Shown piece by piece: positions 5,390-29,891 of a stretch of 31,411 nucleotides of DNA (position 1 is the first letter of the stretch; the number at the start of each line of letters is the position of its first letter). Where the stretch lies: the IMG/VR virus record IMGVR_UViG_3300031197_000008, positions 1-31,411 of that record; one strand, written 5' to 3'. The position numbers and the translations under genes were made by a program. The notes beneath the pieces are model-generated. The model was not told the origin of the DNA, searched no databases, and worked only from the letters and a program-made list of their open reading frames with translations. This stretch comes from a virus. Its lineage: Duplodnaviria; Caudoviricetes.

Positions 5390-6168
5390 CGCACTGCGTA
5401 AACTCTGAACTTTTTAGCGGCACTGGCCTTATCGAATTCTGCCTGGATATTCAAACCGAGGTGACGTTTCATTTCGATGATTTCCGAGTTGATTGCTTTC
5501 TGCAAAGCGAACTGATACCTGGAAGCCACGGCGGCGCGTTGGGAAGAATGAACCGGAATGCCCAAGTTGAATTCGGCTGCTGGAAAGGCACCGGGCCTCG
5601 CGATCTTGAAAAGCTTTTGGATTCGGCTGCCCGGCAGAATCGAAACTTTTCCTGCGCCGAATACTTGTGCCTTGTGTTGGAGATCAATCACCGCCGCATT
5701 GTGTTGCGTAAATTTTTCATAAATCGAAAAACGGCGCATCACATGCACAAGCGCAGCCTTCATAAAACCGACGCGCGCGAGTCTTGTGCGAACGAATTTG
5801 GCTGCCGCGTCATACATCGCTCGACCGTAAAGCCCTTTTTTTCCCAGCCGCCCGCGAATGGCGTTGATGATGAGATGACGCGCCTGAAGATTCAGGTTCA
5901 CCCGTTTGCGGCGTGTCCCGCGCTTGCCGGTTTTCTTGTTGCGATAAAATGCAGGGTTGTTGATGTCATGAAGGTCTAGCAATTCCCCTCGTATTCGATT
6001 GCGCTCCGCTTGCGGGTCTTGCGGATCAAGATTCACGTAGGTCCGCGCTGCCACGTAGAACATTCGCGAATTGAGTGTGCGCTCAATCGTCCGGGAACTG
6101 TTTGCCACCGTTTGCCGCAATCCGGCGGTGAATTCCGGCAAACCTTCCAGGCGTAAAGTAATGGCCAT
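5386..6168 (-). CDS. Neck/tail-completion protein (HK97 gp10-like position)
   Basis: 260 aa basic protein starting MAITLRLEGLPEF, located after the head-closure gene. Confidence 0.55.
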   Translation of the reverse strand: MAITLRLEGLPEFTAGLRQTVANSSRTIERTLNSRMFYVAARTYVNLDPQDPQAERNRIRGELLDLHDINNPAFYRNKKTGKRGTRRKRVNLNLQARHLIINAIRGRLGKKGLYGRAMYDAAAKFVRTRLARVGFMKAALVHVMRRFSIYEKFTQHNAAVIDLQHKAQVFGAGKVSILPGSRIQKLFKIARPGAFPAAEFNLGIPVHSSQRAAVASRYQFALQKAINSEIIEMKRHLGLNIQAEFDKASAAKKFRVYAVR

Positions 6169-6171
6169 GCG

Positions 6172-6561
6172 TCAATGCTCCGGGTCGATCAAATCAATTT
6201 GCCAATGCGCGTTGCCCACCGGCTCAGTCACGGCGCCGACTCGATAGCGCCGGTTCTTGTGCGTGACAATCTTGCCAGCGCTCGGCGGAAAATCTTGATC
6301 GGTTGTGATGAGGCTTGAGTCCACCGTCACTTCGTCGCTGTCCACCGTCAACCGTTCAGGCAACACGTCCTTGCGCACGATCAAAGTGGCAACAATCATA
6401 ACCTCGAATCCGCCGACGGCGATGGCGGTTCCCCGTCGCAGCCCGCTGACGATGCAAGGATACGTCTGGCCGCGCCAATCGAACGTTGGCGCACCGGCTG
6501 CCCCGCCGAAAACATTCTCGCACGTTCGCAAACCGTGTTGAATCAATCCTTGAAAGCTCAT
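6172..6561 (-). CDS. Head closure / head-tail joining protein (gpFII-like)
   Basis: Start moved to ATG 6561 (ATGA overlap), 129 aa. C-terminus PSAGKIVTHKNRRYRVGAV fits the beta-barrel stopper pattern. Confidence 0.6.
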   Translation of the reverse strand: MSFQGLIQHGLRTCENVFGGAAGAPTFDWRGQTYPCIVSGLRRGTAIAVGGFEVMIVATLIVRKDVLPERLTVDSDEVTVDSSLITTDQDFPPSAGKIVTHKNRRYRVGAVTEPVGNAHWQIDLIDPEH

Positions 6562-7085: not shown

Positions 7086-10025
7086 TTACACTTGGGCGAT
7101 GTAGGGTCGCGGATTGTGATAAACATTAAAAATCTTCTGCGGTGCAAAGTCCGCCAGCGTGAACATCGTCACCACGCCCTGGCTGGAAACCGTCGCCGCT
7201 TTCTCCGGGTCCGGCGCGTGCCAGATCACCGTTGCCGGTTGCTGTTCCTTTTTCGGATTCGAGAAACCCGGCGCGGGCGTGAGCAGAAACTTTTGAAACC
7301 GCTGCACCGCCGTCGATAGGAATTGTTGAAAGGCGAGACTGCCTTGCGCCAGGTCCGCAACTTCGGTGTCATAACTGTCGCTCCGAAAATTCCACATCTG
7401 CGGCGGGTTTCCTGGAATTTCCGAGACGAATTCAAAGTCCGGCAAATGCGCGTGCGTCGCCTTGATTTCCAGAATGGTTTGCACGTCGCCTTCGTCCCGG
7501 TGCCGGTCGATGCTGACGCCGGCGGCCACTTCCAATTTCTCATGAACGAACAGCCAGCCGAGTTCTTCCGCCCGCGCTTTTACGTCGCGAATGTCGCACC
7601 AGTAATATTGCGGCTGGGGAAACGACGGCTTCACAATCCCATTCATCTTGAGCACATCGAACGCAAGCGTCTGCGCCTGCTGCCAGGAGGCCGGGAAATC
7701 TGCATAAGTCTTGATGGGGATGCCCAGCACCGTCGCGCATTCGCGATTGCGCGGGTAGCGCAGCTCCGCGAATTGATAGCGCGGATGAATGCCCAGGCCG
7801 ATCAAGCCAGCCTCCTCAAGTCCAATATTACCAAGCGAGGCAGCCACGAACTCAAAAAGACTTTCCGGCTCGCTCGGCAACACGAAACTCAACCGGCCAA
7901 AGTGCAATGGATACCCGCCTTTGATCCGGTTCACGCTCCAAGCCATGTTGTTGTAATGCTCGCGCAAGAGCGGCAGGCGCGTGAACCGTTTCGGGTCGAG
8001 CGGCGCGAATTGATTGGCGAGCAGGAGCGCGCGGCGATTCACGGGAGTCAATTCATCATACCATCCCACCGTGTTGTAACGATCCGCAAAAAGATTCAGC
8101 ACGTCCGGTTCCGCGAAGGAAAAGAACCGGCCATCCTCTTCCGGGTCGAGCAAGGCTTCCACGCGCTGCAAGAGCTTGATGCCATTCTCCGCTTCGTGAA
8201 TTCGGTTCAATGAAAAATCTGCGCCGTCCGGCCCGGCCTTGTCCTGCTTGAACCACGGATTGCGATAAGCCAGCCCGCCGCTTTCGACATTGTAAGGCGT
8301 GAACGACGCCGGGAATCGACCCTTGCGCGGCGAGTGAAACGAACTGCCGGCCACAATGCCATGCTGTAGGGTAAAGAGAAGCCCGAAATATGCCTCGTTG
8401 CCCTTGGGAATGATTTCGCCAATCTCTGGAAATCCATTGAAGTTGAAAGCCACGAATTCCTTCTTCGTGATTTCCTTGTTGCCGATCTCCCAGGAATCAT
8501 TGAAATCTTGAATCGGATATTTGCCCGTCACCGTTCGATCGTACGTCAGCACCAGGCCCGCGCCCGTGAGCGTCAACTTCTGATTCGTGTAACGCCCCGC
8601 CGTCAAATTCGCCGAGTTGAACGTCGTGAATTCTTCCACCGTGCGAATCTGCGGATACGTCGGCTCATTGAAGCTGATAAAAAATCCGTTCGTATGATCG
8701 GCTTGGACTTCCTGCCATGTCACGACGTTCTCGCCCGCGAAGGCTTGCGCCGTGACCAAATCCGAATTATGCCAATGCAATGGAGCGAAGCTGGCGAGTT
8801 GCACCGGTGCATTCACATTCGTGACCGGCACATTGCCGAGCAGATTGGTGGACCAGGAAACCAAATCCGTCTGAATGCCATCGCCGTTCACGATGGACAG
8901 CACCTTGTTTGTTTCCGTCACGTTCAGATTCTTCGCCGCGAAATCGTTCATCAAAGTCCGGTAGCCTTTGAACTCGACTTCAGCGAACGTCGTGGCCGCA
9001 TCGCCCGCCTTCCGCGCAATCTTCAGTTTGCCTTTGTGATGGATCAAGTCGCCGATCAACGTTGCCGGATCGGACGGGTCGCCAAACAAATCCGCGTAAT
9101 CCGAATGCACATCGTGCACCATTGCATTGTCGAACGTCCATTCGGCTCCAAGCATCGGGCCGGCGAATTGATTCACAAAATCAAAGAGCAACTTCGGGTT
9201 GCTGACGTTGTTCGCCGCCATCGCCCACTTCACCGGGCTGGTGGTGCCGGTCTCCTGAATATTGAATTGAAACAGCCTTGGATCGTCCGGCAGAAACTTT
9301 TGAAAGTAGCGGCCGCCGCGCGTGTAAATCCCGCCAACACCTGTTCGCCGATAGCAAACCGATTCCCACCGCGGCAACGTAAAACTCAAATCGCCATCGA
9401 AAGAAATCGTGACCGGATTCTTCGTCATGTTGTGGAACCGGAAAAAATTGAACTTGTTTTGCCGGCGCGTGATCGTCAGCGACGTTGGCCCTTCAATGAT
9501 GATGTCCGCCAAGGCGTAGCGGTAAATCTTTTCCGGGATGCGACTGTTCCACGGTTGCAGCCAGTAGCGTTCGCCTGCGATTTCCCGCGTGTGCGCTTCG
9601 AGGGAAAAATCAAGGAAGTTGAAACTTGAATAACTTCCGGGTGAACCGTTGAACGGAACATCCGTGCCGGCGTGCGCCGATTCCAGAGGGGCTTTCGTGT
9701 GGACAATGCGCAACTCGGAATCGCGCGGCGTGCCCGGAATCGGAATTGAATCCATTTCCGCTTGCGTCAATTCAGCCAGGCCGTCGGCGGCATCCACGAA
9801 CAATTGATGATTGTAGGAATGCGCCGCGAAACGACGGGCATAAGCGGATAGTCCGCTGAAAAAACAAAAGCGTTTGCGGCTCAAGAAAAAACCAGCATCA
9901 TCACAAAAGAGAAAACTTTTGCCAGTAAGCAGATTTGAAAGCTTGGCATCGAGCGCGTCAAACAGCGCGTTCATGCGCGCGGCGGTCGGACGCTCGCCGC
10001 TGACGAGATAAGGGATCAGAGCCAC
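7086..10025 (-). CDS. Large hypothetical virion/tail-associated protein
   Basis: 979 aa ORF; N-terminus GERPTAARMNAL resembles the T-A-x-x-x-N starts of tail-tip proteins. No catalytic motif recognised. Confidence 0.6.
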   Translation of the reverse strand: MALIPYLVSGERPTAARMNALFDALDAKLSNLLTGKSFLFCDDAGFFLSRKRFCFFSGLSAYARRFAAHSYNHQLFVDAADGLAELTQAEMDSIPIPGTPRDSELRIVHTKAPLESAHAGTDVPFNGSPGSYSSFNFLDFSLEAHTREIAGERYWLQPWNSRIPEKIYRYALADIIIEGPTSLTITRRQNKFNFFRFHNMTKNPVTISFDGDLSFTLPRWESVCYRRTGVGGIYTRGGRYFQKFLPDDPRLFQFNIQETGTTSPVKWAMAANNVSNPKLLFDFVNQFAGPMLGAEWTFDNAMVHDVHSDYADLFGDPSDPATLIGDLIHHKGKLKIARKAGDAATTFAEVEFKGYRTLMNDFAAKNLNVTETNKVLSIVNGDGIQTDLVSWSTNLLGNVPVTNVNAPVQLASFAPLHWHNSDLVTAQAFAGENVVTWQEVQADHTNGFFISFNEPTYPQIRTVEEFTTFNSANLTAGRYTNQKLTLTGAGLVLTYDRTVTGKYPIQDFNDSWEIGNKEITKKEFVAFNFNGFPEIGEIIPKGNEAYFGLLFTLQHGIVAGSSFHSPRKGRFPASFTPYNVESGGLAYRNPWFKQDKAGPDGADFSLNRIHEAENGIKLLQRVEALLDPEEDGRFFSFAEPDVLNLFADRYNTVGWYDELTPVNRRALLLANQFAPLDPKRFTRLPLLREHYNNMAWSVNRIKGGYPLHFGRLSFVLPSEPESLFEFVAASLGNIGLEEAGLIGLGIHPRYQFAELRYPRNRECATVLGIPIKTYADFPASWQQAQTLAFDVLKMNGIVKPSFPQPQYYWCDIRDVKARAEELGWLFVHEKLEVAAGVSIDRHRDEGDVQTILEIKATHAHLPDFEFVSEIPGNPPQMWNFRSDSYDTEVADLAQGSLAFQQFLSTAVQRFQKFLLTPAPGFSNPKKEQQPATVIWHAPDPEKAATVSSQGVVTMFTLADFAPQKIFNVYHNPRPYIAQV

Positions 10026-24136: not shown

Positions 24137-24762
24137 GGTTCATTGATCGTCTGAACACCCGCCGCCGTGAAACTTTCATCCAGCGTGGTCTTGAGCAGAA
24201 TGCCGACGGCCGTCATGTCCAGCCCGGTCAGTTTTGCGATTTTGCTTTTCAACTCGATCTCGAATTTCTGGCGAAGAATCTGGCGCAGGTTTGTTTCCCG
24301 TTCGTAAACTCGATTCCAGGTCTCCTGCCGGTCCACCCATTTGCCGGCGAAGATTTCTTCCGCGCGTTTTTCCAGCCTCAATTCCCGGCGCAATTTTATT
24401 TCCTGCGCCGTAGCAGCGAGCTTGTCCTTGCCTTCGGCTTTGGCCCTAACTTCTTTGCCGTGGGTTTTCAGCCAGGGACCAAGTTCTAGCGGATAAATGC
24501 GGCTGTCGCGGAAACCGGGAGCGCCCTTGCGTTTGGCAAACTGAATCTCCGAGCGCGTGACATTGAGCCGGTCCGCAGCTTGGTCAATCGTATCACACGC
24601 CGCCCCTTCCGCGCCCATTGCCGCGCGGAGTTGTTGCCGCTCGCCGATGTTGAGCACCTTGCCCGCTTTGATCTTGGAAACGATGTTGGCGAGGTTAGCT
24701 TTTTCCAGGAGCGCGAATTGCTCCGGCGTGAACGTCTCGGCGGGTTTGGCGGGATTGCTCAT
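24133..24762 (-). CDS. Terminase small subunit (Nu1-like), putative
   Basis: HTH (DQAADRLNVTRSEI..KRKGAP) followed by a coiled coil, upstream of a gpA-type terminase. Confidence 0.65.
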   Translation of the reverse strand: MSNPAKPAETFTPEQFALLEKANLANIVSKIKAGKVLNIGERQQLRAAMGAEGAACDTIDQAADRLNVTRSEIQFAKRKGAPGFRDSRIYPLELGPWLKTHGKEVRAKAEGKDKLAATAQEIKLRRELRLEKRAEEIFAGKWVDRQETWNRVYERETNLRQILRQKFEIELKSKIAKLTGLDMTAVGILLKTTLDESFTAAGVQTINEP

Positions 24763-26021
24763 TTGGAAATCAGGACGGGTTTCTTGCCGGTGGAATCCAG
24801 AAACCTTTGCAGAGTCACGGCCACGTAATCCGGCGAAATCTCCAAGCCGAAACAGCGACGCCCAAGGTTCTCGCAGGCAATTAGCGTTGTGCCTGATCCG
24901 AGGAATGGATCATAAACTGCATCGCCTTTTTTTGAATTGTTCCGAATCGGACGCGCCATGCACTCAATTGGTTTTTGAGTGGAATGGCCGGTCTCGGACT
25001 TTTGCGGCTTATCGATCTCCCAAAGCGTCGTCTGTGATCTATCGCCCGACCATTGCCCCCTTTTACATTTTCGGACGGCATACCAACAAGGCTCGTGTTG
25101 CCAGTGGTAGTCGCCGCGACCGATAGCGAAAGTGTTCTTTGCCCAAACGATCTGACATCTAATCTCGAAGCCTGCGATTTCAACCGAAGCCTGCACCCTG
25201 CTGGCATGCCGGTCGGCATGCCAGACATAAGCAACGTCCCCCGGAAACAACCTCCAAGCCTCCGTCCAGTCGCACTCGCTGTCGCCCGTGACCTTCCCTA
25301 CGGCGCGAGCGCCGTAGGGCTTTCCATTTGCGCGATCAGCCTCGTTGCGCCAGTTGGCATCGTATTCGACGCCATACGGCGGATCAGTTACCATTAGCAT
25401 GGGTTTTTCTTTGCCGAGCAGTCGCGCTACGTCTTCACCTTTGGTCGAGTCCCCACATAGCAGCCGATGCTCTCCAAGCTGCCAGAGTTGACCCGTCTTC
25501 GTTTTCCATTTCTTCGCGAGTTCCGCTGCATTGTCGATTTGAGGTTCAACATCAATGACGGGCTTGGGCAGCAACGAATTCAAATCAATCGGCAGCACCG
25601 TCAACTCTTTCAACTGATCCAGATCCAACATGGCCGTGTTGATAAACTCGCCCAGGCTCGCGTCCGTCATCTCGCCGTATTGCGAGTTGCACAAAAGGAT
25701 TTTCTCTTTCGCTTCCTTTTCATCCCGCGCCTCGATCCACACCACCGGCACGGGCGGCACCGTGTAACCTTCCTCGGAGAGACGGCGCAAAACTTTATCG
25801 CGCTGATGCGCGTCAATGATGAAAACCTTGCCCGCGTTTTTCCAAACGAAGAAAGGAAACGTCACGCCGTGCTTCAAGATCGACGCTTTCAGTTTCTTGA
25901 AATTGTCTTCCGGCAGACTTTTCAGATCACCTTGCAACGGCAGAAGTTTTTCCAGTGGGATCGTGGCCGCGCCCTCGCAGGTGATGCGGATTTCCGTTTT
26001 GGTTTTGCGATCGGGTTTCAT
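24759..26021 (-). CDS. ParB-like domain fused to N6-A/N4-C DNA methyltransferase (beta class)
   Basis: Start moved to ATG 26021 (420 aa). ParB-like IIDAHQR; catalytic TDPPY precedes HSTQKP and SAM-binding DPFLGSGTT. Confidence 0.92.
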   Translation of the reverse strand: MKPDRKTKTEIRITCEGAATIPLEKLLPLQGDLKSLPEDNFKKLKASILKHGVTFPFFVWKNAGKVFIIDAHQRDKVLRRLSEEGYTVPPVPVVWIEARDEKEAKEKILLCNSQYGEMTDASLGEFINTAMLDLDQLKELTVLPIDLNSLLPKPVIDVEPQIDNAAELAKKWKTKTGQLWQLGEHRLLCGDSTKGEDVARLLGKEKPMLMVTDPPYGVEYDANWRNEADRANGKPYGARAVGKVTGDSECDWTEAWRLFPGDVAYVWHADRHASRVQASVEIAGFEIRCQIVWAKNTFAIGRGDYHWQHEPCWYAVRKCKRGQWSGDRSQTTLWEIDKPQKSETGHSTQKPIECMARPIRNNSKKGDAVYDPFLGSGTTLIACENLGRRCFGLEISPDYVAVTLQRFLDSTGKKPVLISK

Positions 26022-26590
26022 CGTTCCCAAGGTTCTAAATACGCGACTCCGCAAATCTCAAAGAATGCTTTTTCTGAGGCGCACGGAATCACTGAGCCAT
26101 TTAAAATTTCCGTCAGCGCGTTGCCGTAAGCGTGAACCGCAATTCCGCGCTCCGCCGCCGATGCAATGAGCTTCAGATTTAGTTCTTTTGGTCCGGTGCG
26201 AATGACCAGCGAGCGCGACCAATTAGCTTCGTCGGTCTCACAAAAAAAATCCAACGGCATACCCGTAGCGCAATGAATCATCAGTTTGTTCTTCACGCCG
26301 AATGTCGTTCCACCGTTCACGTTCGGACGCAGTTCCAGGACGCCGGCCTTGATCCATTTCTGAATTTGTTCATCGACGAGAAAAACGGTTTCAGTCTCAA
26401 ACATATCACCGCGATCTTTCCGGTTTTCAGTCTTGGTGATATAAAGGATTTCCACGTCACCGATGAATTTCTTTCGCCGGCGCAATGAGCCAGCGATCAC
26501 GAGCCGATGGCACAGCGGTTTCAACACGTCGCAGATTTCTTTGGCAACGTGCAAGCCGAGAGCAGCAGGATATTTTTTCTTGTCAGTCAT
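26018..26590 (-). CDS. Minimal family X DNA polymerase (palm and thumb only)
   Basis: IAGSLRR....GDVEIL, LDFF, RTGPKELN and SE...F...G..YLEPWER PolX motifs in 190 aa. Confidence 0.88.
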   Translation of the reverse strand: MTDKKKYPAALGLHVAKEICDVLKPLCHRLVIAGSLRRRKKFIGDVEILYITKTENRKDRGDMFETETVFLVDEQIQKWIKAGVLELRPNVNGGTTFGVKNKLMIHCATGMPLDFFCETDEANWSRSLVIRTGPKELNLKLIASAAERGIAVHAYGNALTEILNGSVIPCASEKAFFEICGVAYLEPWER

Positions 26591-27323
26591 TTGTTGCCCA
26601 CCTGTTCAAAAGGTCTTGCAACCATGCGCCACGATTTGCGATTTGTTTGCCTTCGCGAATTTGCACGGTCAAATCCGCAAGGCCGCGATCCACCAGGCTG
26701 GGAAATTTCCGCACCCAGTTCGCCCGCCAATGCCCGCCGGCCCGGGCCATTTCGTCTTCGCCCAACGCTTCCCGCAGCCGTCCCATCAGTTCCTTTTCGA
26801 CAGAGCGATTAGGCGATGAACGTTGAACGATTAACGGCTGGCCGTTGGTGTCCGGCGGCCCGGTGGCATCGTTTAAACGCTCTGCTTTGCGTTGTAAGTT
26901 TAGTCGTGTATCGTAAGAGCAATGCTTGAAGGATGCTTGAAGGATGCTTGAAGCATTGCTTGAAGCATCAACTTTCAGTTTTTTCCAACGCGCTTGAGAT
27001 GCGAGACTTGCACGTTTTTTGTAAGCGACCAGGTGGCCTTGCCACTTCAACCAGTTCGTCATTCGCCATTTTCCGGCCCGTTGTTCCATCCATTCGCATT
27101 TGACCATTGCCGGCAACATTTGACCCGGTTTACCCCACCATCCGGCCAGCGTCTCGATCTCCTCTTCCATGTAGTCGGCCAGCGAACCCGTGTCGCTGTG
27201 GAACTTACCGCAGTAGGTCCACAATCGCAGAGGTAATAGCTCCGCTCCATGTCCCAAGAGGCCAACCAGACGTTTGGTCTGCCGATGATCGAAGTAATCC
27301 AAGTCAAGGTTTATTGACGGCAT
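26583..27323 (-). CDS. Phage replication initiator / replisome organiser
   Basis: N-terminal winged-helix-like domain (LDYFDH.....L...LG......L.LW), low-complexity linker encoded by iterons, helical C-terminal domain. Confidence 0.72.
   Translation of the reverse strand: MPSINLDLDYFDHRQTKRLVGLLGHGAELLPLRLWTYCGKFHSDTGSLADYMEEEIETLAGWWGKPGQMLPAMVKCEWMEQRAGKWRMTNWLKWQGHLVAYKKRASLASQARWKKLKVDASSNASSILQASFKHCSYDTRLNLQRKAERLNDATGPPDTNGQPLIVQRSSPNRSVEKELMGRLREALGEDEMARAGGHWRANWVRKFPSLVDRGLADLTVQIREGKQIANRGAWLQDLLNRWATND
26923..26965. repeat. Iterons, putative replication origin
   Basis: TGCTTGAAG at 26923, 26934, 26945 and 26957 (spacing 11, 11, 12) inside the initiator gene. Confidence 0.75.
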
Positions 27324-28324: not shown

Positions 28325-28371
28325 ATTAAGCGAACGATTAAGGTTTTGAAGTTGCAGAATCCTCGTTCTCC
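28325..28371 (+). other. Putative attI site, crossover G28365^TT
   Basis: GTTCTCCATCA (28365-28375) is the exact reverse complement of TGATGGAGAAC at the R'' end of the first attC. No full attC left arm lies upstream. The extent of the site is uncertain. Confidence 0.75.
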
Positions 28372-28652
28372 ATCAAGATTCGCTCGCGGCGCTCTAAATA
28401 GACGATGCCGATGACGCGGTTGCTGTCCTCCTCGCGGGCGATGCGCCAGCCTTCATCGGGATTGCCGGGGATGCCTTGTTTCCGCAGGATTGCGTCAGCT
28501 TCCGCGTAGGTGCAGAGCTTCAGTTCGAGACGCCGATACCGTTTGAAGATTCGATAGTAGAGGCTTTTCAGCGTTCGCACCAATGATGGAGAACCAATCA
28601 GTGCAGCAGACGGCATTTTGGCGCTCAATTGAGGAGGCGTGTTGGTAGTCAT
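28338..28652 (-). CDS. Cassette 1 hypothetical protein
   Basis: Start moved to ATG 28652 inside the attC loop (104 aa); stop lies beyond the attI crossover. Confidence 0.65.
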   Translation of the reverse strand: MTTNTPPQLSAKMPSAALIGSPSLVRTLKSLYYRIFKRYRRLELKLCTYAEADAILRKQGIPGNPDEGWRIAREEDSNRVIGIVYLERRERILMENEDSATSKP

Positions 28653-28705
28653 AAATTCAGTCGTTTTTCGGAAGCGCGTTCCCGGTGCCGCTGCTGAATT
28701 CCTCG
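28366..28705 (+). mobile_element. Gene cassette 1 (340 bp)
   Basis: Bounded by G^TT crossovers; 11-bp complementarity between the cassette start and its own R''. Confidence 0.85.
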
Positions 28706-28711
28706 TTATGA
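28588..28711 (+). other. attC site 1 (124 bp)
   Basis: GGAGAAC-CAATC-AGT[G]CAGCAG[A]CGGCA ... TGCCGCTGCTGAAT-TCCTC-GTTATGA: 5-nt spacers and two unpaired bases on the left arm. Confidence 0.9.
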
Positions 28712-29032
28712 TGCTTGCCCTATCGCCATGCAGAGCGTTCCGGTTTGGTGGTCGCCGATACCGCCGACAGTTCCGCCGCACCAGATTTCCCACGGACGCG
28801 GCCAGTAGGGGACGTTGCGCTCGATGATGATTGGCGCGGGATAGGGCGGCCACGGGAACGGCGTGGTTTTCGGATTGTCCTTTTCCCATTGCTCCTTGAA
28901 TTTTTGCAGTTCGGTTTTCTCGATCTCGAACAGCTTGTTGAGTTCAGCTTGCACTTCGCGGGCTTCCGCCGCCGTGAGTTCGATGTCACGGCCTTTGAGT
29001 TGCAGTTTTATTTTCGTGATTTCAGTTTTCAT
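28706..29032 (-). CDS. Cassette 2 hypothetical protein (Pro/Trp-rich C-terminus)
   Basis: 108 aa; TAA stop coincides with the TTA of the R' box at 28706. Confidence 0.75.
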   Translation of the reverse strand: MKTEITKIKLQLKGRDIELTAAEAREVQAELNKLFEIEKTELQKFKEQWEKDNPKTTPFPWPPYPAPIIIERNVPYWPRPWEIWCGGTVGGIGDHQTGTLCMAIGQAS

Positions 29033-29148
29033 ATTTGTGTTGAGATTGACGCATCATAACCCGTCACTGCTGCGAATCGGACGGGGCGCACTGAGCCTCA
29101 CCCGATGCCGACGCCTTCTCTCGCCCCGCCGATTCGCAGAGTTCCACG
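28706..29148 (+). mobile_element. Gene cassette 2 (443 bp)
   Basis: GTTATGATGC (28705-28714) is complementary to GCATCATAAC (29051-29060). Confidence 0.85.
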
Positions 29149-29154
29149 TTCGGC
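29054..29154 (+). other. attC site 2 (101 bp)
   Basis: TCATAAC-CCGTC-ACT[G]CTGCGAATCGG[A]CGGGGCG ... CGCCCCGCCGATTCGCAGAGT-TCCAC-GTTCGGC. Confidence 0.92.
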
Positions 29155-29489
29155 ATCTCATGCGCCGCGTTGCTGATAGCCTCATGCCACTGCTTCGGAA
29201 TGAAGCCGAGACGGGCAGCTTCTACACCGAGTTCATCACGGATTCGCATTGCGTTCTTCATGCAGGCAGACCGCTCGTCAGGCATCACCGGGATTGCGAT
29301 GCCGCGCTTGTCTCTGGCCTTGCAGTGGATTTGGTCGAAGCGTTCCGTGCGCTCATGATATTCACGCGCCAGTTCACGCAGTTGCTTTTCCTCCGGGCTT
29401 GGCGTCCACGGCACTCCGAGATATTCACGTTGGAATGCCGAACCACTTGCTGCTGCCAACCCCGCTTCCGTTTTACGTTCGTTGCTCAT
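29064..29489 (-). CDS. Cassette 3 hypothetical protein
   Basis: 141 aa; starts inside the attC3 loop and reads through almost all of attC2. Confidence 0.7.
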   Translation of the reverse strand: MSNERKTEAGLAAASGSAFQREYLGVPWTPSPEEKQLRELAREYHERTERFDQIHCKARDKRGIAIPVMPDERSACMKNAMRIRDELGVEAARLGFIPKQWHEAISNAAHEMPNVELCESAGREKASASGEAQCAPSDSQQ

Positions 29490-29552
29490 AGTTGATTCGA
29501 TTGTTTGCCGTGCGCTCCACCCGCGTCCTCGGCGGGGTGGCAGAGCGCGACG
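29149..29552 (+). mobile_element. Gene cassette 3 (404 bp)
   Basis: GTTCGGCAT (29148-29156) is complementary to ATGCCGAAC (29435-29443). Confidence 0.85.
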
Positions 29553-29558
29553 TTAGCA
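29437..29558 (+). other. attC site 3 (122 bp)
   Basis: GCCGAAC-CACTT-GCT[G]CTGCC[A]ACCCCGC ... GCGGGGTGGCAGAGC-GCGAC-GTTAGCA. Confidence 0.92.
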
Positions 29559-29891
29559 GGTTTCAATTTCCTCAATTGTTGGCGTCCACACCTTGCGACC
29601 GCCGCGCGGGCCGCGTTTGGCCCAGCCGATGAGCACCACGCGCCGATCTGGCGGGCAATGCACGATGCCCACATTCGGTTCGTTGCGCAGTTTGGTTCGC
29701 CGCGCGGACAGACTCGCCGAAGCGCACGCCTGGATATAAAGTGATTCATCCCCGCGAATGGCCACGATGTCACAGAAACCGAACAGGTCGCAGCGATGAC
29801 CCGGCGGCGGGAAGCGCACGAACTTTTCCACGATGCCGCAGAGCCAGCCTTCGCCACGGAATTTCTTCAAAGTGAGTTGGGTTGGACTCAT
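29553..29891 (-). CDS. PD-(D/E)XK-like nuclease / Holliday junction resolvase-like protein, putative
   Basis: Start moved to ATG 29891 (112 aa); L...GW...VE...DLFGFCDIVAI......IQ pattern; stop lies in the last R' box. Confidence 0.55.
   Translation of the reverse strand: MSPTQLTLKKFRGEGWLCGIVEKFVRFPPPGHRCDLFGFCDIVAIRGDESLYIQACASASLSARRTKLRNEPNVGIVHCPPDRRVVLIGWAKRGPRGGRKVWTPTIEEIETC

Follow-up and report, generated by a model that had tools for sequence, protein, structure and literature searches.

Classical integron arrays are driven by a Pc promoter located in intI or attI, and their cassette genes lie on the top strand and end at or before their own attC. In the textbook description, attC is a non-coding hairpin that follows the gene and hampers downstream translation.

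attC sites, in four cases accompanied by intI, occur in phage genomes, and five of six tested phage attC recombined with attI1 (Qi et al. 2023, PMC9892861). The phage intI genes in the main text of that study are of class 1 or host chromosomal types. Short reading frames in attachment sites are described as well, namely ORF-11, ORF-17 and ORF-18 in attI1 and short ORFs in attC (PMC8876359). GcuF1-OXA-28 is a natural fusion that is read across an attC junction and altered by IntI-mediated excision (PMC3375312), and synthetic attC placed in coding sequence recombine and encode peptide, with protein shuffling proposed (Nivina et al. 2020, PMC7439510). Neither attC in phages nor occasional translation through att sites is new in itself.

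This work describes an array in a window of 31,411 bases (the whole stretch of DNA analysed) that very probably represents a phage integron with genes antisense to attC, in which each attC is the standard gene junction. The phage integrons of PMC9892861 carry DNA methyltransferase cargo, like the related arrays studied here. Their integrases are of class 1 or host origin, whereas the present one belongs to a phage-associated clade with antisense, frame-locked genes; the main text of PMC9892861 neither contains the term ‘antisense’ nor mentions coding through attC. In the published phage TJE1 our scanner returned three attC in the usual sense orientation, and in P12002L it found no convincing attC. 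The ORFs of PMC8876359 likewise cross the crossover, take their stop from the neighbouring cassette and couple translation. However, they are short top-strand leader peptides, as opposed to an array-wide rule for full bottom-strand genes that end in the neighbour’s site and start in their own. GcuF1-OXA-28 is a single sense-strand class 1 fusion, whereas here the frame is common and every site brings a stop. The sites of PMC7439510 are engineered, and the present array would be a natural counterpart that exchanges short tails and leaders, not domains. In the literature covered, which comprises few subscription papers and in which the 17 CALINs of PMC9892861 might include such arrays, antisense frame-locked arrays are undescribed. 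Judged from the sequences, the architecture appears to be clade-wide and well beyond chance, and an antisense frame-locked integron is apparently new.

Integrase and attachment sites

The window is a whole contig of a lambda-like phage, with genes for terminase gpA, a lambda-type portal, an S49 protease and a major head protein, and all its annotated genes are on the minus strand. It is present in five listed runs, all of them soil metagenomes and none an RNA run. A verrucomicrobial host is likely because six of the nine best genome-collection matches are Verrucomicrobiota bins, the rest being labelled Burkholderiales, Polyangiaceae and Chryseobacterium. Viral locus L035 and genome-collection contig L091, which bears a Burkholderiales label, have identical integrases, and the host labels of such bins may mislead.

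The integrase frame is unbroken and its catalytic motifs are kept. The top NCBIfam match, TIGR02249, reaches 236.6 bits (E 4e-70) against a cut-off of 265; this cut-off is a naming threshold, and a score below it is consistent with the divergent clade seen in the tree. The top PDB sequence match is 2a3v, IntI4 (E 1.6e-38, residues 9-306 aligned), and this alignment takes in the integron-specific inserted segment that is missing from XerC/D matches. Among cultured phages no close IntI relative was found, the best being ~35%. In a quick tree, which omits 10 rows with stops and 10 that are duplicate or partial, the window integrase joins almost every array-bearing viral relative in a single clade of 35 rows (SH-aLRT 99), apart from 40 other rows; L079 is a long-branch exception. 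The integrase frames of L008 and L072 contain in-frame stops.

The gene next after intI encodes a replication initiator. Within it, at 26918-26968, an 11-12 base repeat occurs four times and forms an inverted pair, likely representing origin iterons. On the minus strand, 26018-26590 encodes a small protein resembling PolX (DNA pol beta thumb), adjoining a ParB-like/DNA methylase fusion at 24759-26054.

Upstream of intI, the array has three attC sites in canonical orientation, the plus strand being the top strand (Table 1). All three have R''-L''-L'-R' boxes with box-pairing scores of 13-15 out of 15, and the ends of each cassette (R' with R'') are perfectly complementary over 11, 9 and 9 bases. 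A strict box-pairing scanner returned these three sites alone across the 31 kb window, and 359,833 shuffled bases gave no match. Because of the complementary cassette ends and the lack of matches in shuffled bases, the three attC sites exceed chance. We infer from its position that the region ahead of intI is attI: its crossover lies 41 nt upstream of intI with an 11-base complement to the R'' of attC1, and at the same position relatives have a similar sequence and an Asn-frame stop ahead of intI.

The predicted folds of the three sites differ. Compared with shuffles, only attC2 folds better as bottom-strand DNA (z -4.8, versus +0.4 for attC1 and -0.1 for attC3). A strong hairpin with bulged bases is the best predicted fold for attC2 only, and the predicted pairing of the R stem amounts to 0.51 in attC2, 0.03 in attC1 and 0.003 in attC3, for which a competing DNA fold is predicted. 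As RNA, an unusually stable hairpin is again confined to attC2. Given the weak predicted folds of attC1 and attC3, their cassettes may move rarely. A weak scan for a sigma-70-like site, i.e., a Pc-type promoter directed toward the array, found none in intI or attI, where such a promoter would run antisense to the cassette genes. A promoter and terminator scan of the window stayed at chance level.

Table 1. Attachment sites and genes of the array in the window
Feature	Position	Strand	Description
intI, integron-type integrase, 333 aa	27323..28324	-	TIGR02249 and 2a3v matches; same direction as phage gene chain
Putative attI region	28325..28367		Crossover G|TT 28365|28366; provides 9-residue tail and TAA (28338-28340) for ORF1
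ORF1, 104 aa	28338..28652	-	attC1-encoded leader, conserved phage domain of ~70 aa, attI-encoded tail
attC1	28584..28711	+	AAC 28592, GTT 28705; contains ORF1 ATG 28652
ORF2, 108 aa	28706..29032	-	Widespread phage protein with its own start; stop is TAA of attC1 R'
attC2	29052..29156	+	AAC 29058, GTT 29148; codes 28-residue tail of ORF3 and TGA 29064-29066
ORF3, 141 aa	29064..29489	-	attC3-encoded leader (~18 aa), conserved core phrog_27964, attC2-encoded tail
attC3	29435..29560	+	AAC 29441, GTT 29552; contains ORF3 ATG 29489
Resident phage gene bounding the array	29553..29891	-	ATG 29891; stop is TAA of last R' box

Genes predicted to start and end in the sites

The ORFs are on the bottom strand, so that the genes are antisense to their cassettes and point the same way as the phage operon and intI. 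A preceding sequence-only reading had proposed that ORF2 and a bounding ‘nuclease’ gene stop at the TAA inside an R' box, and homologues support both frames. ORF2 has 86 homologues, and most of the 50 inspected share its beginning and end, which are therefore native; one search for its viral relatives returned only ORF2 itself. The bounding gene has 28 homologues, the closest of which (92%) finishes three residues short of its stop. Its product, without a match in Pfam, NCBIfam or PHROG, may be nuclease-like, judging from a resemblance of motifs.

The same reading had placed the starts of ORF1 and ORF3 inside their own attC and had found no stop within either cassette, both frames passing the neighbouring crossover with its AAC read as Asn and gaining a tail from the adjacent site (attI for ORF1, attC2 for ORF3). 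These descriptions held for both genes, the start of ORF1 being less certain than that of ORF3. Judging from alignment, the start of ORF3 must lie in or before attC3, since conserved residues begin one codon past R'' and no further ATG comes until far into the core; N-terminal similarity among ORF3 homologues also starts right at R''.

An alignment of homologues had been suggested as a test of whether similarity stops at the crossover Asn. A search with ORF3 returned 19 proteins, 16 of which have the core in common. Twelve of these 16 have the crossover Asn and then split, every tail being different, and the other four end earlier, differ at the crossover or are frameshifted. The remaining three proteins (P0017-P0019) are unrelated bodies with an attC2-type tail, P0018 and P0019 having been picked up via the tail alone. 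Together with a cassette of locus L045 that carries two tails (see below), these splits and shared tails bear out the claim that shuffling swaps C-termini. One further protein, P0006 (242 aa), resembles a fusion of two cassette genes by way of an attC.

Among 12 homologues of ORF1, the conserved core ends just short of the crossover and none has the ORF1 tail. TTG and GTG codons directly after R'' would make ORF1 as long as its attC-free homologues, and ORF1 may start there because eight homologues, of 66-83 residues, have no leader. Start-context scoring did not separate the candidates; the matrix was crude and non-discriminating, built from 33 window starts with two wrong training coordinates. 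The cassette homologue of ORF1 in locus L030 has no TTG or GTG after R'' and starts at an ATG in its own site, which speaks against a TTG/GTG start for ORF1. A 183-aa ORF from 28889 was considered as the true ORF1 and rejected because it overlaps the well-conserved ORF2.

Three loci with ORF1 homologues show further variants. In L030 (~5940-6330), AGC/GCT takes the place of AAC/GTT at both ends of the cassette; the ends remain complementary and the frame is unchanged, and the tail of the homologue finishes in an ATGA overlap. In the large phages L026 and L028 (~5960-6240), the leader of the homologue resembles a relic attC arm and the gene end is without a site; these homologues are possibly domesticated cassettes.

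Strand, frame and spacing in related phage arrays

Relatives of this IntI are encoded by 67 viral loci, and the window and 65 loci were scanned. Scanner matches numbered 102 upstream of intI in canonical orientation versus three in each of the three other side-strand classes. Removal of five duplicate loci, and of five distant ones that each had a single weak match, left 88 unique sites from 28 loci; the five dropped single sites likewise carry short Asn-frame tails. The strict scanner, which replaced a noisy loose hairpin scan, overlooks non-AAC cores and other spacings, so that some surveyed ‘cassettes’ span two. A few attC are reversed or far from intI (upstream of intI in L072, downstream in L017 and L015).

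The longest frame that reaches the crossover is the Asn frame at 58 of the 88 sites, the R' TAA frame at 12 and another frame at eight, with no frame of 50 codons at the remaining 10. The Asn frame stops within the site in 87/88 cases, compared with 52 and 49 for the other two frames, and in 53/53 clusters at 65% identity, compared with 31 and 32. Of 71 cellular loci whose integrases are distant, 23 provided 31 control sites; here the Asn frame stops within the site in 17/31 cases, and a long frame arrives at 5/31 sites versus 62/88 phage sites. At the attI of relatives, the end of the last cassette is matched exactly (7 bases) in 15 of 27 loci, and all 13 attI tails read out of those 15 loci stop before intI.

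The first ATG of the downstream gene lies inside attC at 52 sites and after R'' at 28, and is absent at eight, so a start within attC is not a universal rule. Where the ATG is internal, the Asn-frame stop falls within 8 nt of it in 40/52 sites (4 and 14 for the other frames), and in 16/52 the two overlap exactly as ATGA (2 and 10 for the other frames, the 10 belonging to the -1 frame). At 28 of the 40 closely spaced sites, the junction is currently used by a long Asn-frame gene. The translational coupling that the sequence-only reading had proposed stands, through this close spacing, to the extent of a sequence signature. Start-bearing sites are longer (median 100 versus 84) and have less stable predicted folds (50 versus 28 sites, with two edge sites skipped), which suggests a trade-off between initiation and recombination in attC. 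The window fits such a trade-off, as attC2, the site without a start, is its sole strong hairpin.

The 17 PHROG matches in related arrays include five DNA methyltransferases, one Mom-like and two Lar-like proteins, a cargo that suggests counter-restriction.

Mobility, competing readings and implications

In locus L045, one 254-base cassette occurs twice (7566-7820 and 9717-9970) with 99.6% identity that breaks at the crossover. The predicted tail of the duplicated gene has 18 residues in one copy and three in the copy beside attI, and the duplicated cassette gives the same 7-residue tail to two unrelated upstream genes. Near-identical attC are also found on unrelated gene bodies, with similarity that ends at R'', as in L007 (7874-7995) and L015 (2051-2172) and in a further site that L007, L009, L014 and L043 have in common. 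Such shared attC may bear on how cassettes are made. For the window itself, two other assemblies and three array-spanning runs have an identical gene order and no joints, the assemblies matching the window throughout. Four public runs contained no joints or variants, three of the four possibly being source samples and contigs dropping rare forms.

The layout, the fixed Asn frame, the stop within the site, the close spacing of stop and start, and the differing tails on homologous or identical cassettes are direct observations. In the mechanism we propose, an attC would provide the upstream gene with an in-frame tail and a stop and then, usually, its own gene with a start and leader. The phage IntI would recombine folded bottom strands, excise cassettes and reinsert them at attI, which lies downstream of all the cassettes as the genes are transcribed. 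All genes would be read from one upstream phage promoter in a single transcript. The common frame would let a stop-less gene terminate properly beside any attC or attI, and ribosomes that terminate in the loop would re-initiate at the following gene, so that cassettes could be reshuffled without breaking reading frames.

It is next to impossible that these are ordinary bacterial cassettes with top-strand genes, the bottom-strand frames being their shadows. The top strand does have an open frame of at least 80 codons at 55 of the 88 phage sites, but the length of top-strand ORFs is a poor test in these GC-rich sequences. Strand was therefore judged by PHROG matches, obtained for 17/72 bottom-strand frames and 0/62 top-strand frames; since the bottom-strand products of ORF1, ORF2 and ORF3 each have homologues too, classical sense cassettes are refuted by homology. 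We also consider it improbable that the tails are functional, with shuffling selected to vary C-termini for stability, interaction or localisation. Diversity is high, with 79 distinct tails among the 88 sites and one gene body found with many tails. Against a function, the tails are short (median 13 aa, range 2-30) and have no common end residue, phage genes free of attC also encode the cores of ORF1 and ORF3 with no tail of this kind, and conservation ends at or before the crossover. Because the tails are short and lie beyond conserved domains, it is doubtful that their swaps diversify protein function; they are probably tolerated, mostly neutral by-products whose job is termination and coupling.

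Two more limited alternatives concern attC3 and the mobility of the array. The sequence-only reading had noted a short frame over attC3 and had suggested that ribosomes crossing the hairpins could couple translation. This frame is real, with a TGA (29486-29488) that overlaps the ORF3 ATG; it forms the last part of a shadow ORF of 123 codons and lacks a start codon within attC3. It coincides with the Asn-frame tail of attC3 (29554-29486, 22 residues, ending in the ATGA overlap), and the equivalent slot of attC1 (28707-28657, 16 residues) has its stop 4 nt ahead of the ORF1 ATG. Neither tail is in use in the current gene order, since the genes upstream already end at the TAA of R', and the short frame is most likely the idle tail slot of attC3, not a leader peptide. 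It is unlikely that ribosomes currently enter this frame at a TTG near the end of the upstream gene and are delivered to ORF3, a role for which the short ORFs of class 1 att sites are a precedent (PMC8876359, section 3.2). In-frame TTG codons do occur at 29566 and 29575, and the latter ranks in the top 1% of the start-context matrix, a weak score given the two wrong training starts. However, nearly every attC holds an Asn-frame slot whatever lies upstream (the 87/88 sites above), which leaves a dedicated ribosome-delivery ORF unsupported; at most closely spaced sites a long upstream gene uses the slot, and the slot of attC1 shows no start codon. Similarly, there is only a small chance that the array is a frozen relic here, with a real architecture and immobile cassettes. 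The weak predicted folds of attC1 and attC3, the lack of rearrangement in other assemblies or runs and the relic half-sites ahead of ORF1 homologues in L026 and L028 speak for it. On the other side, intI is uninterrupted with its catalytic motifs present, the ends of the three cassettes are still perfect complements, the near-identical L045 duplicate points to recent activity within the clade, and the runs may be source samples whose contigs drop rare variants.

Tentatively, the antisense, frame-locked reading may be extended to a widespread phage lineage that runs an active integron, in which attC acts as a portable stop-start module that joins phage genes at R'' to create new cassettes and shuffles them at R'. 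This extension draws on the near-identical attC on unrelated bodies, with their break at R'', and on the cores of ORF1, ORF2 and ORF3 being ordinary phage genes. The single frame would then keep the early operon coupled in any order.

The phage appears to invert the integron design, with the site as gene junction and a cassette that keeps its frame wherever it is inserted. In this, it would be the natural equivalent of the engineered synthetic coding attC. For annotators it carries a warning, as attC-derived tails create false similarity among unrelated phage proteins such as P0018 and P0019. The array points to gene shuffling on the phage side, and the pairing of cassettes with attC-free versions of the same genes makes cassette origin testable. 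If attC is indeed a portable module, these arrays would be a place to watch cassette creation, a long-standing question.
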